NCBI GenBank assembly: GCA_000165345.1
Contig: CM000435.1
Location: 64,001 to 128,000 of the forward strand
Length of the DNA: 64,000 nucleotides
Reading direction: 5' to 3'
Shown: positions 20,541 to 63,074 of the stretch, piece after piece
Layout: the number at the start of each line of letters is the position of its first letter
Position numbering within the stretch: the first letter of the stretch is position 1
Notes under the pieces: generated by a model
The model's database searches: none
Seen by the model: the letters and a program-made list of their open reading frames with translations, nothing else
Told to the model about the DNA's origin: nothing
Made by a program: the position numbers and the translations under genes

Positions 20541-21039
20541 ATGACAGATTGGGAATCACTTTTACTAGAGAGAGTCAAAAAAAGGGATCAGCCAAGTATC
20601 TCTGACCTTCTAGAGCTTTACGGATCGTGTAAGTAATTTTTTCTTTTAATTTTTAAGCCTTTTAATAACTTACTTCCTTCTTGATTTGGCGTAAATTACA
20701 CTTTTTATTCTCATTTTTTTTTCTCCTCAAATAGATACTGATCTAAGGAAAAGGTTCATCTCAGCTCAACCCTGCAACTCATCAACTCCTCAAAATAGGA
20801 AAACAACTCACACTAAAAATTCTAGTACAAGCACTGAACAAGTCCGTTTCCTACAAGCAAAACTTTCACAACTACAGCAAGAGCTCACCAATTCATATAA
20901 GAATAAACTCAACTTTGATGATTCTATTGGCAAACTCCGTGAGAAAATTGATAAGTTAGAAAGTGAAATTTCAGAAAAAGACAAAACAATTAGCAAACTT
21001 GAGAGAACAATTTCCCACTTGCAGTCTAATAAACTGTAG
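20541..21039 (+). CDS. Small coiled-coil protein, two exons (exon 1 20541..20628, intron 20629..20734, exon 2 20735..21039). Not in ORF track
   Basis: ATG at 20541 gives MTDWESLLLERVKKRDQPSISDLLELYGS. GTAAGT donor at 20629 and poly-T tract plus AATAG acceptor ending at 20734. Phase-1 junction restores frame (T+AT = Tyr). Exon 2 encodes a heptad-rich coiled coil ...VRFLQAKLSQLQQELTNSYKNKLNFDDSIGKLREKIDKLESEISEKDKTISKLERTISHLQSNKL with stop at 21037-21039. The spliced product is about 130 aa. Confidence 0.45.
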
Positions 21040-52450: not shown

Positions 52451-53401
52451 TTAAAGATTAAGGCTTTTTAAGTCTTGGACAAGGTTTTGAATAGATTCAA
52501 CTGATTTAGAAAATAATGATTTTTCGTCATCAGATAAATTTACAATAACAACGTCTTCAATACCATTTTTTCCAATAACAACAGGAACACCGACAAAAAG
52601 ATTGTTAACATTATACTGGCCAGTAAGATATGTTGAACAAACTAATACTGATTTAGAATCTTTCAAATAAGCTTGAGCCATAGCTACAGCTGAAGCGGCT
52701 GGAGCATAGAATGCTGAGCCAGTTTTTAAAAGTTCAACAATTTCACCGCCACCAAATGCTGTCTTCTTAATAATTTCATTGATTTGTGAATGAGTAATTT
52801 TTCCTTGCTCAACAAAATCACTAAGCAGAATTCCACCAATTGTAACTGAACTAGTTAATGGTATCATCTCATCTCCATGGCCACCTACAACAATGGCTGA
52901 TACATCAGATGGCTTTACACCTAATGCTCGACTTAAATTACATCTGAACCTAGCGGAATCAAGCACACCTGACATACCACAAACTTTATTAGCTGGTATT
53001 CCACTCTTTTCTTTAAAGTAGTAAACCATCGCATCTAGAGGATTAGTAATACATATTACAAATGCATTAGGGCAGTATTTACCGACATTTTCTGCAACTG
53101 AACCAACAATCTTTGCATTAACAGTAAGTAAATCTGAACGTGTCATATTTGGTTTTCTAGGAACTCCAGCTGTTATTATGACGACATCAGAGTTTTGTAA
53201 ATACTCATAGTTATTTTCACCAAATATTTTCGCTGGTGACCCAATCAATGCCATGCAGTGATTCAAATCTAAAGCTTTTCCTTGTGGAACTCCCTCAATA
53301 ATATCAAACATATAAACATCTCCTAAATCTTTTTGTCCTAAAAGAAGTGCTATAGTTGAGCCAATTTGTCCAGCTCCAATAATTGAAATTTTCTTTCTCA
53401 T
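52451..53401 (-). CDS. MDH: Malate dehydrogenase (LDH-like MDH, Arg at substrate-specificity position)
   Basis: 316 aa. IGAGQIGST Rossmann motif. AGVPRKPNMTRSDLL loop with Arg at the position equivalent to residue 102. Catalytic GGHGDEM. Paralogous to the adjacent gene over its full length. Confidence 0.85.
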   Translation of the reverse strand: MRKKISIIGAGQIGSTIALLLGQKDLGDVYMFDIIEGVPQGKALDLNHCMALIGSPAKIFGENNYEYLQNSDVVIITAGVPRKPNMTRSDLLTVNAKIVGSVAENVGKYCPNAFVICITNPLDAMVYYFKEKSGIPANKVCGMSGVLDSARFRCNLSRALGVKPSDVSAIVVGGHGDEMIPLTSSVTIGGILLSDFVEQGKITHSQINEIIKKTAFGGGEIVELLKTGSAFYAPAASAVAMAQAYLKDSKSVLVCSTYLTGQYNVNNLFVGVPVVIGKNGIEDVVIVNLSDDEKSLFSKSVESIQNLVQDLKSLNL

Positions 53402-53819: not shown

Positions 53820-54785
53820 TTATGCTCCAGCAGCTGGTGCATTATCCAACACCTTGGAAATAGTGTTGACTTCATTAATTGATTCCCCAAGAAGCTTCTG
53901 TTCTAGTGGAGTTAAGTCCAATTCGAGAATGTCCTCAACACCATTCTTTCCAATAATTGTTGGAACACCCATGTATATACCCTTTACACCATAATGGTTG
54001 GAGCAGAATGCAGAACATGGAACAACTGCCTTCTTGTCCTTTAGGTAAGCTTCAGCCATCTTAACAGCAGCAGCGGCTGGTGCAAAGTAGGCAGTTCCTG
54101 TCTTTAAGTTATCAGCAACTTCCTTCCATGCTATTCTGGTATGGCACACAATCTCATCAATTTGTTCCTGGGTGATAAGACCTTGCTTAATGAAGGATGA
54201 AAGAGGAACACCACCAACCGAAACTGAACTAGTAACTGGTACCATACCATCGCCATGGCCACCAATAACGTTGGCACTAACATCAGAAGCATTAACGCCA
54301 AAATGTTGTGCAATGAATGTTCTAAATCTAGATGAATCTAATACACCTGCCATACCACAAACTTTGTTATGTGGAAGCCCAGAAACCTTTTGGAAGTGTG
54401 AAACCATAACATCTAATGGGTTTGTGATACAGATGACAAAGGCATTTGGACAGTATTTCTTAACACCTTCGGCAACTGAATCCAAAATACGAGCATTTCC
54501 GAATAAGAGTTCAGAACGATCATCTTTTGGACGACCTGGAATGGAGGCTGTGATAATAACTACATCAGAGCCTGATATATCAGCATAATCATTTGTGCCG
54601 ATAACCTTTGATGTGGAACCAAACATTACCATAGAGTGGGTAATATCTAGTGCTTTTCCTTGTGGAATGCCTTCTGCAATATCAAAAAGTACTACATCGG
54701 CTAAATTGTCTTTACCTACAATATATGCAATATTACCTCCAATTTGTCCTGACCCAATAACGGCAATCTTGCGTCTTTCAATCAT
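53820..54785 (-). CDS. LDH: L-lactate dehydrogenase (MDH-derived paralog with Gly at substrate-specificity position)
   Basis: The tracked ORF starts at a TTG (54824). The ATG at 54783-54785 gives MIERRKIAVIGSGQIGGNIA (321 aa). Loop ASIPGRPKDDRSELL has Gly where the MDH has Arg. GGHGDGM. Tandem to the MDH on the same strand. Confidence 0.85.
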   Translation of the reverse strand: MIERRKIAVIGSGQIGGNIAYIVGKDNLADVVLFDIAEGIPQGKALDITHSMVMFGSTSKVIGTNDYADISGSDVVIITASIPGRPKDDRSELLFGNARILDSVAEGVKKYCPNAFVICITNPLDVMVSHFQKVSGLPHNKVCGMAGVLDSSRFRTFIAQHFGVNASDVSANVIGGHGDGMVPVTSSVSVGGVPLSSFIKQGLITQEQIDEIVCHTRIAWKEVADNLKTGTAYFAPAAAAVKMAEAYLKDKKAVVPCSAFCSNHYGVKGIYMGVPTIIGKNGVEDILELDLTPLEQKLLGESINEVNTISKVLDNAPAAGA

Positions 54786-58316: not shown

Positions 58317-58911
58317 ATGGTGCAGTTTTGTATTCATTGCCACAATATTCTTTTACTTAAGGAACATGAGGAGAGAATGGCATTTTATTGTCCCACATGT
58401 CCTTATGTATTCAAAATTGTGAGCCAAATTAGCAAAGTAACAGATTTTGTTCCCAAAAAGATGGAAGAACCTTCTATAGATATGAACGAAATTGCAAGCT
58501 CAAAGACAATGGGTAAGTTAAGATTATATAGTGGTAGTACTATTATTTGTAGAAGAGATCTTTATTTATTACTATATTATACAAATAAATTATATTTGTA
58601 TATTCAAAGTATTATTTATCAATTAATAAAAAAGGGAATATGAAAAAAAAAATTAAATATATTATAAGTCCTTAAAATACCTAATTATATATAAATCTCT
58701 TAAATAATACTACTATCTCTAAATATTTGCCAATTACTTTAATAATAACTTCCTATTTTACTGGTGCTCTTTATTTAAACTTTTAGCTGTTTGTCCAAAG
58801 TGCTCATTTTCTGAAGCTTACTTCTTCCAATTACAAATTAGATCAGCTGATGAACCAATGACAAGCTTTTATACTTGTGTAAAATGTGACTTCAAATGGA
58901 AGGAAAATTAA
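58317..58911 (+). CDS. RPC11: DNA-directed RNA polymerase III subunit RPC11 (C11/POLR3K), two exons (58317..58512 and 58787..58911). Not in ORF track as a spliced gene
   Basis: Exon 1: MVQFCIHCHNILLLKEHEERMAFYCPTCPYVF..., the N-terminal Zn ribbon (CxxC...CxxC). GTAAGT donor at 58513. TTTTAG acceptor ending at 58786. Phase-1 junction (G+CT = Ala). Exon 2: VCPKCSFSEAYFFQLQIRSADEPMTSFYTCVKCDFKWKEN* is the TFIIS-type C-terminal Zn ribbon, with the RSADE acidic hairpin typical of C11/A12.2. Spliced product is 106 aa. Confidence 0.6.
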
Positions 58912-58915
58912 TGAA

Positions 58916-61252
58916 TTAATTAAATATAGTTGACGCTGATATAATTGATACATCTTGTATTGGTCTATCATTCCTATTAGTTGAAACATGCTCAATTTCT
59001 TTCACAATCTCTTTACCATGAACAACCTTACCAAATATAGTATGTACTCCATCCAACCATGGACAAGATGCTGTTGTTATAAAGAATTGGCTACCATTTG
59101 TATTTGGGCCTGCATTTGCCATACTTAAAGTGAATGGTTCATCATGCTTAACATTTGGTGAAATTTCATCTTCAAATTCTTTACCCCATATAGATACTCC
59201 GCCAATACCTTGTCCAGTTGGATCACCAGTTTGTATCATAAAACCTTTAATAACTCTATGAAAAATACAATTGTTATAATATCCATTAAAACAGTGTACT
59301 GAAAAGTTTTCACAAGCTTTAGGAGCAATTTCTGGATAAAGTTCTAAAGTAATATCTCCTTTAGTCGTATGTAGTATAACTTGTTTTGCAATTCTAACAT
59401 ATGCATTACTTCTTTCTTTCCCTTTATTTGAGAATTGTTCCAATTGTTTTTGTCTCTCAATTTCTTCACTACTTGGTAATTCATTAAATATATCTCTTTT
59501 TAAATTAACATCACCATTATCTAGTAATGGTAATCTTTTTGAAAATATATATATACGATTTGATTTATAAGCAGAAGTAATAATAGCTGAATCAACATTA
59601 CTTAAATGATTATCATTGTAATTAATTCCTCTATGTATTTGTAATAATCCCAAATTAAGAAATCTTTTTCCTGTTTCAAATTTACCAATAATTAAAACAC
59701 GCTTTCCAATTTGTATATCAAGTACACATACACCAATCATACAAGTATATATTAGAAATCTAGACGTTTCATCAAAGACCATATTCTGCATGTTATAATA
59801 TTCTGGAAGATTTTGAATTTCTGTTTCAACTGATGATCTAACACCAAATTCTAAATGGTCAATATGTAAGTAGTCATATTCTGGATTGCTCTGCATTACA
59901 TTATAAGATGATATATTTTCATCAAATATTTTATAGCATTTACCTGTTTGAATTAAAAATAATCTAATTTTATAGTCAGAACATTTGATTGCAAGATTTC
60001 TTTCATCATTACTTACTACCATATTAATTGCATAACATTTATTCTTTTGTAACTCAAATAAATCTGTTTCTATTTTATATTGAAATTTGATAGGATTCAA
60101 TTCATTATCTTGGATATTTCTTCTTGGTAAAGTCATTGTCCAAGGATCCCAAAATTCTAATCCACCTGATATATCTCCTGATATAATTATTCCTAAGTTT
60201 GGTAAAAACTTCAAGCATGTAACTTGAGCTTTATGATTATTATATTTTGGAAAGCTTTCATTATCTGGATCTTTTTCATTATTAATAAGTAAATTACCTC
60301 CTTTAATTGAATATATATATATAGATCCTGTTTTCAATTCTGATAGCACAATTTGGGGATATATTAATCCACTTGATAAATTAAATGTATTTATATTTCG
60401 CATATTACTTTTATTTTTATCATTCTTATTCCCATGATTATTGATAGAACTGGAAGATAATCCTCCTCCTATTGATGATAAAAATACGCATCTATTAGGA
60501 TATATGGGAATTCTTATTATAGAAATCATGTCAAAATTTGATATACTATATAATTTAATATCTTTTTCATTTTCTGATATACTTGCCATATATTGTTCAC
60601 AATTTGAAATAGAAATATCAGATACTTCATTTTTATGAGCTTGAAAGCCTTTTACAAATTCTAATGAAGTGATTACTGGAGAAGATAATTCTTTTGTTTG
60701 ATTTTCTTTTTCCCTTAATATTTCTTTTTCTGACCTTAATCTCCAAAATTTTATCACACCATCTTTACTTGCTGTAATAATAAACCCCGTTTTATTACTA
60801 GATAATATGTGAGTAACTTGTTTTTTATGCATAAAACTGCATTCATAAAAATCTGTTTTTGGAATATTTACTATTTTCTCCAGTTCTTTCTCTCTATTCC
60901 TCTCCCTTTCTTTATTATCTTTATTTTCTGATTCAACTTTCTCAATAGAGTCATTAGTTGTCAACATTGTGGGCATTGGCCCTAGAGAGTCATCATCATC
61001 ATCATCAACATCATCCTTATTATCTTCTTTTATTTCCTTTAATTGATTATTAGTTATGACTTCAATTTTCCTTGTTTTCAATTTATTTGAATAGCCCAAT
61101 TCATATTTATCATTAGAAAAATCAGGCTCTAGATAGCTAAACTGCTGATCTTCATCTTTCTTACTTTTATCAACAAAATCTGTAAAGCCAGGACCAAAAT
61201 CTTCACTACCATCTGAGCTTTCGCCTTCCTGTAATTGATTTTGCAAACTCAT
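58916..61252 (-). CDS. PPWD1: Peptidyl-prolyl cis-trans isomerase (cyclophilin) with N-terminal WD40 repeats (PPWD1/Cyp71-like)
   Basis: 778 aa with ATG at 61250-61252. WD-repeat region of about 450 aa. C-terminal cyclophilin domain HTTKGDITLELYPEIAPKACENF...FHRVIKGFMIQTGDPTGQGIGGVSIWG...GPNTNGSQFFITT...LDGVHTIFGKVV. Confidence 0.85.
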   Translation of the reverse strand: MSLQNQLQEGESSDGSEDFGPGFTDFVDKSKKDEDQQFSYLEPDFSNDKYELGYSNKLKTRKIEVITNNQLKEIKEDNKDDVDDDDDDSLGPMPTMLTTNDSIEKVESENKDNKERERNREKELEKIVNIPKTDFYECSFMHKKQVTHILSSNKTGFIITASKDGVIKFWRLRSEKEILREKENQTKELSSPVITSLEFVKGFQAHKNEVSDISISNCEQYMASISENEKDIKLYSISNFDMISIIRIPIYPNRCVFLSSIGGGLSSSSINNHGNKNDKNKSNMRNINTFNLSSGLIYPQIVLSELKTGSIYIYSIKGGNLLINNEKDPDNESFPKYNNHKAQVTCLKFLPNLGIIISGDISGGLEFWDPWTMTLPRRNIQDNELNPIKFQYKIETDLFELQKNKCYAINMVVSNDERNLAIKCSDYKIRLFLIQTGKCYKIFDENISSYNVMQSNPEYDYLHIDHLEFGVRSSVETEIQNLPEYYNMQNMVFDETSRFLIYTCMIGVCVLDIQIGKRVLIIGKFETGKRFLNLGLLQIHRGINYNDNHLSNVDSAIITSAYKSNRIYIFSKRLPLLDNGDVNLKRDIFNELPSSEEIERQKQLEQFSNKGKERSNAYVRIAKQVILHTTKGDITLELYPEIAPKACENFSVHCFNGYYNNCIFHRVIKGFMIQTGDPTGQGIGGVSIWGKEFEDEISPNVKHDEPFTLSMANAGPNTNGSQFFITTASCPWLDGVHTIFGKVVHGKEIVKEIEHVSTNRNDRPIQDVSIISASTIFN

Positions 61253-61814
61253 CTTTCAAGATACAGTCTCGACTATTCCTTACTCTTTCTCTTTTTAGGT
61301 AACTTCTTGTGTGAAATAGTTTTCTTATCAATACCAAAATGTATATTTTATACTATATTCTCATTTCTATTCCTTTCCCTTTACTCAAATATATCTTTTT
61401 TTCTCCCCTCCTAATAATCAAATTTAGCCTTTTAAATATGGTATCTTTTGGCGCCAATTTGGAGAATACCTAGTTTTTAATATATTTATTTATAAATATT
61501 AATAATAGTGAATAAATAAATTATAATAACTATCATTATTGTTAATATAATATATTATATTTATATATAAAGTAGCTGCATAATACCCATAAAGCCAAGC
61601 ATTACTTTCAAGCTGTTTTTAATTTACACACTTATATCCCATACAGAACAAGTTTGTTATAACCTATTCAAGTTTCTTGTTTTAGATTTGATTTGACTCA
61701 TAGCTTTAGTTACAAGAGATAAAGTTTCAAGCTTAATATTAAATAATTGACCATACACTGACCATTTATTTCCTCTTCTTTTGAACAAATTCAAGTTTAA
61801 TATAAACCCCAAAA

Positions 61815-62383
61815 ATGAGAGATCCGTCTAATTCTAGCGATATTAATATGAGCTATGATGATCAAAAACAAATTAATCGTTTTAGTTCTTTATTAAGCCG
61901 AAAAGTTGAGTTGAAGGGTGAGCTTGAGAGATTTAAGGTAAGTTGGTTTTAATGGCCATTTAATAAAGTTCTTCATTTAACTTTATTTTTTGTTTTTAGG
62001 AAAATCTCCAAACACATTGTGATGCATTAGATGAAATTGCATTATGTATGGACCCTGAGGGAATTCTGTAAGTTTTAATTATTTAATTAATAGTTAATTA
62101 AATTCCATATATATTAAATTTATTTAATTTATCTTCAATTCTTCTCCCCCACTTTATTCAAAATTTTATATACCCATATTTATATTATAGAATTCGTGTT
62201 GGTGAATCATATTATCATGCTTCAGAAGATGAAGCCACTGAAAAGATTGAGGAGCTCAAATCTCAAGTTGAAGGCAGAATTGAAGAGATTTCCAAAGAAC
62301 TATCTTCAATTCAACAAGAAATGGATAAATTAAAGGTTGATTTATATCTTAAATTCGGGTCAAACATCAACCTAGATGAATAA
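61815..62383 (+). CDS. PFD4: Prefoldin subunit 4, three exons (61815..61937, 62000..62067, 62191..62383). Not in ORF track
   Basis: Exon 1: MRDPSNSSDINMSYDDQKQINRFSSLLSRKVELKGELERFK, then GTAAGT. Exon 2: ENLQTHCDALDEIALCMDPEGI(L), flanked by TTTTTAG and GTAAGT. Exon 3: IRVGESYYHASEDEATEKIEELKSQVEGRIEEISKELSSIQQEMDKLKVDLYLKFGSNINLDE*. This matches prefoldin-4 (QKINKF...; ...LYAKFGSNINLE). Phases 0 and 2 are consistent. Spliced product is 127 aa. Confidence 0.65.
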
Positions 62384-63074
62384 ATTTAATTCCCACACTT
62401 TTTAAAAGTTATGTACATATATATTTATATAAATATATATATTCCTTCTGCTCACAATACATCATATTATTTGCATGCATTTTGTTCATGCGGGATGCCA
62501 CTTCTACAACATTTCGAGCATAACATTTTTTTTTGCATGCATTCCACATGAATTATTATTAATTAGTATATAAATTAATTGATGCCACGTAATAATTACG
62601 TCATTTTAATATATATTTTTTTTTAATAATATGAATTTTATTTCCAATTTTTTTACTAAATTTTTTTTAAAACTATTTATGAGAATTAAGAATATGGTTA
62701 CAACTAATTTATTATATTTAAATGATTCGGGTGGGATTTAAATTCTGGCTAATTAATTAAAATTCAGCTAGATTTTTTGGACATAAATATTTACAAACAA
62801 AAAATTTATCAAAGTTAAACATGACATTTCTCCTATACCGGAATAATCACATGTGTGTGGCGCTTAAATTAATTTAATTGGGAAAAAACATTCTTTGAAT
62901 ATAAAACCAATTTTTTAAAGTAAATATAATATATTGAAACAATATTAAGTACATAATTATATTTATAAAAGTTAGAGATTAGAAAAAATAAGTAAAAAAA
63001 AAGGTAATAGTCGGCAAAGAGACTTGTAACAATAATTATATTTGAGCTATGCAGTAAAATTATTGTAATTATAA

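Follow-up and report, generated by a model that had tools for sequence, protein, structure and literature searches.

Background

The closest described relatives of the gene treated here belong to the prefoldin (GimC) complexes of eukaryotes and archaea. Human prefoldin subunit 4 (PFDN4) is available as chain 4 of the entries 7wu7 and 6nr8, and the archaeal beta subunit (GimC beta) is represented by 1fxk (chains A and B), 2zdi and 2zqm. Archaeal complexes contain one type of beta subunit in four copies, whereas eukaryotes possess four distinct beta paralogues. Subunits of the alpha class, on the other hand, carry two hairpins.

The genome of Cryptosporidium parvum has lost about 90% of its introns. 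Published mean values for introns of this species are 84-99 nt in length and 22% in GC content (PMC4637869, Table 1), and the RNA-seq reannotation of Isaza et al. (2015) raised the proportion of intron-bearing genes from 4.3% to 10.8% (PMC4637869). Table S2 of that study lists cgd7_530 among the genes whose model gained a Pfam domain, and in its Table S1 the neighbouring cgd7_510 (RNA polymerase III C11) appears as an exon of a flanking gene.

In this paper we examine a window of C. parvum DNA, by which we mean the whole stretch of 64,000 nucleotides that was analysed, in which the original prediction had placed an unannotated gene of three exons for prefoldin subunit 4. The gene is almost certainly C. 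parvum prefoldin subunit 4 (PFD4, the GIM3 orthologue; cgd7_530 / CPHLJ_7g530, chromosome 7), and its three-exon structure is correct but already known. In the following we describe the gene and its product, compare the locus among species of the genus and with vertebrate PFDN4, and trace how it has been annotated.

Results

The prefoldin subunit 4 gene is confirmed to the base at 61815-62383 on the plus strand, where three exons are separated by two GTAAGT...AG introns. Exon 1 (61815-61937, plus strand, 123 nt) comprises codons 1-41, ends in phase 0 after the invariant K41, and contributes to the protein its N-terminal tail and the initial portion of the N-terminal helix (MRDPSNSSDINMSYDDQKQINRFSSLLSRKVELKGELERFK); its 3' end reads ...AGATTTAAG, after which comes a gtaagt donor. 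Intron 1 (61938-61999, plus strand, 62 nt, 23% GC, phase 0) runs from GTAAGT to TTTTTAG, its 3' end being ttttgtttttag. Exon 2 (62000-62067, plus strand, 68 nt) holds codons 42-63 and two nucleotides of codon 64, again followed by a gtaagt donor, and supplies the last part of that helix as well as the loop leading to the beta-hairpin (ENLQTHCDALDEIALCMDPEGI-L). Intron 2 (62068-62190, plus strand, 123 nt, 16% GC) runs from GTAAGT to ATTATAG, with tatattatag as its 3' end at 62190, and lies in phase 2 within codon L64. Exon 3 (62191-62383, plus strand, 193 nt) extends from the last base of codon 64 to codon 127, followed by the TAA stop (62381-62383). The beta-hairpin and the C-terminal helix are both read from this exon, and its coding part closes with the PFD4 signature LYLKFGSNINLDE.

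Joined, the exons give an in-frame coding sequence of 384 nt with compatible phases (0 and 2), which is translated into 127 aa without an internal stop; the unspliced reading frame meets a stop at codon 46. Both introns have the features of the U2-type GT-AG class, i.e. GTAAGT donors, AG acceptors, short length and low GC content. The original prediction had described three exons, two short GT-AG introns with consistent phases and a 127-aa product, and all of its coordinates proved exact. Its further claim that no exon reaches the 60-aa threshold of an open reading frame (ORF) track is likewise borne out, as the start-to-stop ORFs over the exons measure 45 aa (exon 1) and 20 aa (exon 3), with none over exon 2, and an ORF track with that threshold therefore misses the gene. 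A stop-to-stop frame leading from intron 2 into exon 3 extends over 93 aa.

The product matches the Pfam family PF01920 (Prefoldin_2) at 56.7 bits (cut-off 27.6, E=2.7e-15), residues 17-121 aligning with positions 1-105 of the 106 in the profile. The profile comparison with beta-class models that the original prediction had proposed thus came out in its favour. The alpha-class profile PF02996 scores 16.5 bits, under its cut-off of 23.2, and 33 further Pfam families match as weak coiled-coil noise (best E=0.005). In a search of all PDB sequences the best match is human PFDN4 (7wu7_4, E=1.5e-20, residues 7-126 against 10-130), followed by human PFDN4 in a second entry (6nr8_4, E=2.1e-11), and PFDN4 chains are the only ones below 0.01. 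The PFDN1, PFDN2 and PFDN6 chains of the same two entries do not reach E<=1 in this search, and the assignment to the PFD4 paralogue is therefore specific. Similarly, a profile search whose query included human PFDN4, and whose results are dominated by vertebrates and hold no apicomplexan or other protist outgroup, returned 996 proteins at E<=1e-5; among the best 120 of these, nearly all source names are prefoldin subunit 4 or PFD4, and no other prefoldin subunit is named.

The alignment with human PFDN4 is continuous through both exon junctions, and the two proteins share about 39% identity over their full length as well as the same layout of helix, beta-hairpin and helix (7wu7 chain 4, 6nr8 chain 4). 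They differ in that the hairpin loop of C. parvum is two residues shorter and the vertebrate C-terminal 'ADDS' tail is missing. In an alignment of 19 sequences from Cryptosporidium and vertebrates, the N-terminal motif D-Q-x-x-I-N-x-F (D16, Q17, I20, N21, F23) and the C-terminal motif L-Y-x-K-F-G-x-N-I-N-L (L115, Y116, K118, F119, G120, N122, I123, N124, L125) are both invariant, in agreement with the claim that the two termini match prefoldin-4. R29, E36 and K41 are likewise invariant from Cryptosporidium to vertebrates.

The AlphaFold2 model of the protein (pLDDT 86.2, pTM 0.70) consists of a helix at residues 14-56, a hairpin with strands at 63-67 and 70-74, and a second helix at 76-122, while residues 1-4 are disordered (pLDDT below 50). 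Two long helices joined to a single beta-hairpin represent the canonical beta-class architecture. Indeed, when the model was compared with the PDB by Foldseek, human PFD4 (6nr8_4) ranked first, followed by archaeal beta prefoldins. The latter have the same fold and belong to the same family, PF01920, with TM-scores of 0.74-0.75 (normalised by the query) or 0.85-0.88 (normalised by the target) at a sequence identity of 15-17%; of the four beta paralogues of eukaryotes, the C. parvum protein represents PFD4.

As a separate check on the splicing, we compared the C. parvum locus with its orthologues in C. ubiquitum, C. felis, C. xiaoi, C. ryanae and C. canis; in each orthologue every combination of two GT...AG introns was tried, and the one whose product best matched the C. 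parvum protein was retained. The intron positions are common to all six species, and so are the exon lengths (123 or 126, 68 and 193 nt), the end of exon 1 in the other five species being the same as in C. parvum. Intron length, by contrast, varies from 62 to 96 nt for intron 1 and from 74 to 174 nt for intron 2, the length of the latter often not being divisible by three. The donor of intron 2, GTAAGTTT, is conserved in 6/6 species. Identity to C. parvum amounts to 64-94% in exons against 32-67% in introns: exon 1 retains 64-81% where intron 1 retains 38-67%, and the corresponding ranges for exon 2 and intron 2 are 69-94% and 32-40%. The three-exon structure is far beyond chance, because the alignment of its product with human PFDN4 bridges both junctions and its exon lengths recur in five further species.

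Differences between species are concentrated in third codon positions, with counts at positions 1/2/3 of 9/8/40 for C. ubiquitum, 14/5/61 for C. canis and 32/19/71 for C. ryanae. A dN/dS of 0.10 has been published for C. hominis versus C. parvum (PMC4637869, supplement), and at least ten Cryptosporidium species or genotypes retain an intact frame. Gene order is also kept in all six species, with a minus-strand WD40-cyclophilin gene upstream and PIG-U downstream. The bias towards third positions, the low dN/dS and the contrast between fixed exons and variable introns mark this as a spliced coding gene under purifying selection, whose introns drift freely.

The comparison also bears on the other readings that can be given to the locus. 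With the same three exons, translation could begin at the second ATG, M12 (window position 61848), to yield 116 aa. This is the start chosen in the deposited C. hominis UdeA01 model CUV07029.1 (116 aa, beginning MSYDDQKQ...), and it would agree with the poor conservation of the first six residues and with the disorder predicted for residues 1-4. However, all six species have the upstream ATG (61815) in frame, the conserved residues 8-11 (SDIN) correspond to EDVN of vertebrates in the alignment, and M1 is the start used by four C. parvum annotations. Moreover, the position of M12 is occupied by valine in the C. ryanae gene and in vertebrates, so that M12 is not a conserved initiator. Judged by this pattern of conservation, M1 (61815) appears to be the better choice, and initiation at M12 is improbable.

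The 2004 Iowa II annotation implies instead a single-exon partial gene (XP_628244.1, 93 aa), with exons 1 and 2 being non-coding. Its frame is open from stop to stop over 93 codons and the model is still deposited, but it has no start codon, and its first 29 residues (IPYILNLFNLSSILLPHFIQNFIYPYLYY) are sequence of intron 2, i.e. of a segment with 32-40% identity and a length of 74-174 nt among species. It is also devoid of the N-terminal helix that PF01920 and PFDN4 need, which exons 1 and 2 supply together with its invariant residues. Being contradicted by both the comparative and the homology data, this model is hardly credible and we reject it. One might finally regard the locus as a decaying pseudogene, or as chance splice-like signals around a sequence resembling a coiled coil, given that it is AT-rich and partly of low complexity and that coiled coils draw many spurious weak Pfam matches. 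Yet the match to PFDN4 is full-length and specific, the frame has stayed intact in the ten or more species or genotypes, substitutions favour third codon positions with a dN/dS of 0.10, and the gene keeps its place between WD40-cyclophilin and PIG-U in six species, all of which makes decay or chance extremely unlikely. This reading and the M12 start were thus also rejected as rivals to the three-exon model that begins at M1.

As to its annotation, the 127-aa product of the three-exon model is 100% identical over its full length to four C. parvum proteins in GenBank (KAL5367360.1, QOY40366.1, WKS78732.1 and WRK33219.1), which are named "Prefoldin subunit 4", "Prefoldin beta-like" or "hypothetical protein CPHLJ_7g530". 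The current cgd7_530 / CPHLJ_7g530 model (UniProt A0A7S7LFM6, 'Prefoldin subunit 4') is the same gene, with 127/127 aa identical. At the DNA level, all 5186 of 5186 bp compared between the window and C. parvum chromosome 7 (CP141124.1) are identical, and the gene span annotated there covers the same 569 bp (CP141124.1:166710-167278). At least four C. parvum assemblies include the exact product in their deposited annotation, and the gene has likewise been deposited for many sister species. By contrast, the 2004 Iowa II annotation has a partial model of 93 aa (XP_628244.1 / EAK90673.1), which begins within intron 2 (IPYILNLFNLSS...) and runs into exon 3. The term "unannotated" in the original prediction therefore holds for the ORF track and for the Iowa II annotation of 2004; it does not hold elsewhere, as an identical model exists in at least four C. 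parvum assemblies.

QOY40366.1 presumably belongs to the IOWA-ATCC annotation. The introns of that annotation are stated to be 100% supported by RNA-seq (Baptista et al. 2022; PMC8744675). From the published reannotations that draw on RNA-seq we infer that cgd7_530 is spliced and expressed in vivo. A full-text literature search for 'cgd7_530' returned no paper, the locus being named only in the supplement of PMC4637869. No short, transcript-derived contig with the spliced product was found either, all four contigs that carry it being chromosomes of more than 1 Mb.

Two deposited sequences from other members of the genus deserve mention. The C. ryanae entry (VHLK02000062.1:3001-3575, 129 aa, 'hypothetical protein FG386_002067') is not conserved in its middle part, ...KTERFVFIYSNKTCSSVQSNDFSFRIRFGESYY..., whereas the conserved intron positions (exons of 126/68/193 nt, introns of 96/92 nt) give a protein of 128 aa with the conserved KESLQTHNDALDEIALCMDPEGLLIRFGESYY. 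Since the conserved positions restore this segment, the deposited C. ryanae PFD4 model looks mis-spliced. Furthermore, a 72-aa protein called on a 1141-bp Logan contig shares 83% identity with the part encoded by exon 3 and has an unrelated start, MHWLFLNNRVK.... Its probable source is another Cryptosporidium species, the gene caller having run on from intron 2 into exon 3 and so repeated the error of the 2004 model.

The regions flanking the gene contain short palindromes. The E2F-like palindrome TGGCGCCA occurs at 61449-61456 (context TTTGGCGCCA), 366 bp upstream of the PFD4 ATG, within the divergent intergenic region of 562 bp that PFD4 shares with the minus-strand WD40-cyclophilin gene (58916-61252). 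It is present in four copies in the window, against 0.09 expected, and GGCGCC is found exactly once in the orthologous intergenic region of 6/6 species, at -292 to -379 from the PFD4 ATG. The palindrome matches the published C. parvum E2F motif 5'-TGGCGCCA-3' / DTTGSCGCCH (PMC3734150) and is a candidate promoter element for PFD4, for the WD40-cyclophilin gene, or for both. On the other side of the gene, an ApiAP2 palindrome, TGCATGCA, is located at 62472-62479 and 62534-62541, i.e. 90 and 152 bp past the PFD4 stop and upstream of PIG-U. The window contains 14 copies of it against 0.72 expected, and GCATGC is found in the same PFD4/PIG-U intergenic region in five of the six species. The sequence corresponds to the known AP2_1 motif, which is bound by cgd2_3490 (PMC3734150). 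A scan of the flanks for bacterial-type promoters and terminators yielded 13 promoter-like matches versus 16 expected and no terminators, the models being inapplicable to a eukaryote.

Elsewhere in the window, only 4 bp separate the coding sequences of RPC11 (plus strand, ending at 58911) and the convergent WD40-cyclophilin gene (minus strand, with its stop codon beginning at 58916), and their 3' untranslated regions must therefore overlap on opposite strands. Two tandem paralogues on the minus strand, at 52451-53401 and 53820-54785, encode proteins of 316 and 321 aa with Ldh_1_N and Ldh_1_C domains; presumably they are the known adjacent lactate/malate dehydrogenase pair of C. parvum.

Discussion

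The original prediction had also suggested that introns in this window are concentrated in very small housekeeping genes. We rebuilt the deposited annotation across the window and compared gene span with product length for the 28 genes in or touching it. The span is exactly 3 x (aa + 1) in 25/28, which therefore have no introns. The three intron-bearing genes are those at 20541-21039 (130 aa, an ATG16-like coiled coil), at 58317-58911 (RPC11, 106 aa) and at 61815-62383 (PFD4, 127 aa); they are the three shortest of the 28, the next shortest encoding 185 and 214 aa. A random draw would hit exactly the three shortest with a chance of 1 in C(28,3), i.e. 1 in 3276. Within this one 64-kb window, the suggested concentration thus holds. 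As to the related claim that annotation based on ORFs misses such genes, the under-calling of introns here by such annotation has already been published, with the increase from 4.3% to 10.8% (PMC4637869).

The position of intron 1 invites a comparison with vertebrates, for which we used a single representative, the PFDN4 gene of quail. Its exons could be mapped exactly, and its introns, which follow A8, K44 and K91, are all in phase 0. The alignment has no gaps in its N-terminal part, where quail K44 falls into the column of C. parvum K41, and Cryptosporidium intron 1 therefore agrees with a vertebrate intron in position as well as in phase. The remaining introns are not shared: the quail gene has none at the phase-2 site in L64, where Cryptosporidium intron 2 is located, and Cryptosporidium in turn is devoid of the quail introns after A8 and K91. 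If two and three introns are placed randomly over about 381 positions, a coincidence in position is expected in about 1.6% of cases. The AAG|G context is favoured for insertion, so that parallel gain of an intron at a proto-splice site may account for the shared position. Alternatively, intron 1 could be ancient and date back to the common ancestor of alveolates and animals, with the surviving introns being kept preferentially in the shortest genes, possibly because very short mRNAs need splicing to be expressed or exported efficiently; we put this forward tentatively, as the less probable course of events. Mouse PFDN4 isoform 3 and pika isoform X2 lack exactly KQLQ after the lysine at the intron site. 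The absence of these four residues is consistent with the use of another acceptor of the same intron, 12 nt further downstream.

Regarding its function, the locus would be transcribed from the plus strand, the two short U2-type GT-AG introns would be removed, and the mRNA would be translated into a beta-class subunit of 127 aa. The two long helices, joined by the one beta-hairpin, would pair as a coiled-coil tentacle, and the hairpin would join the central beta-barrel of an alpha2-beta4 hexamer. By homology, the protein would assemble with PFD1, PFD2 and PFD6 (beta) and with PFD3 and PFD5 (alpha) into this jellyfish-shaped hexamer, which would capture nascent or unfolded actin and tubulin and pass them to the chaperonin CCT/TRiC. 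Assembly and range of clients are taken over from what is established for prefoldin/GimC, and nothing in the data at hand suggests a departure from the canonical prefoldin role.

Conclusions

GenBank and UniProt already contain this gene, under its name and with its three exons, both for C. parvum and for about ten sister species. The case has some value as a control: a reader equipped with no tools recovered to the base a model that the annotation of 2004 had wrong and that RNA-seq put right in 2015. The comparison of intron positions used here would in the same way correct the model deposited for C. ryanae. For the small intron-bearing genes of compact genomes such as that of C. parvum, this recovery supports reading gene structure from the sequence itself.
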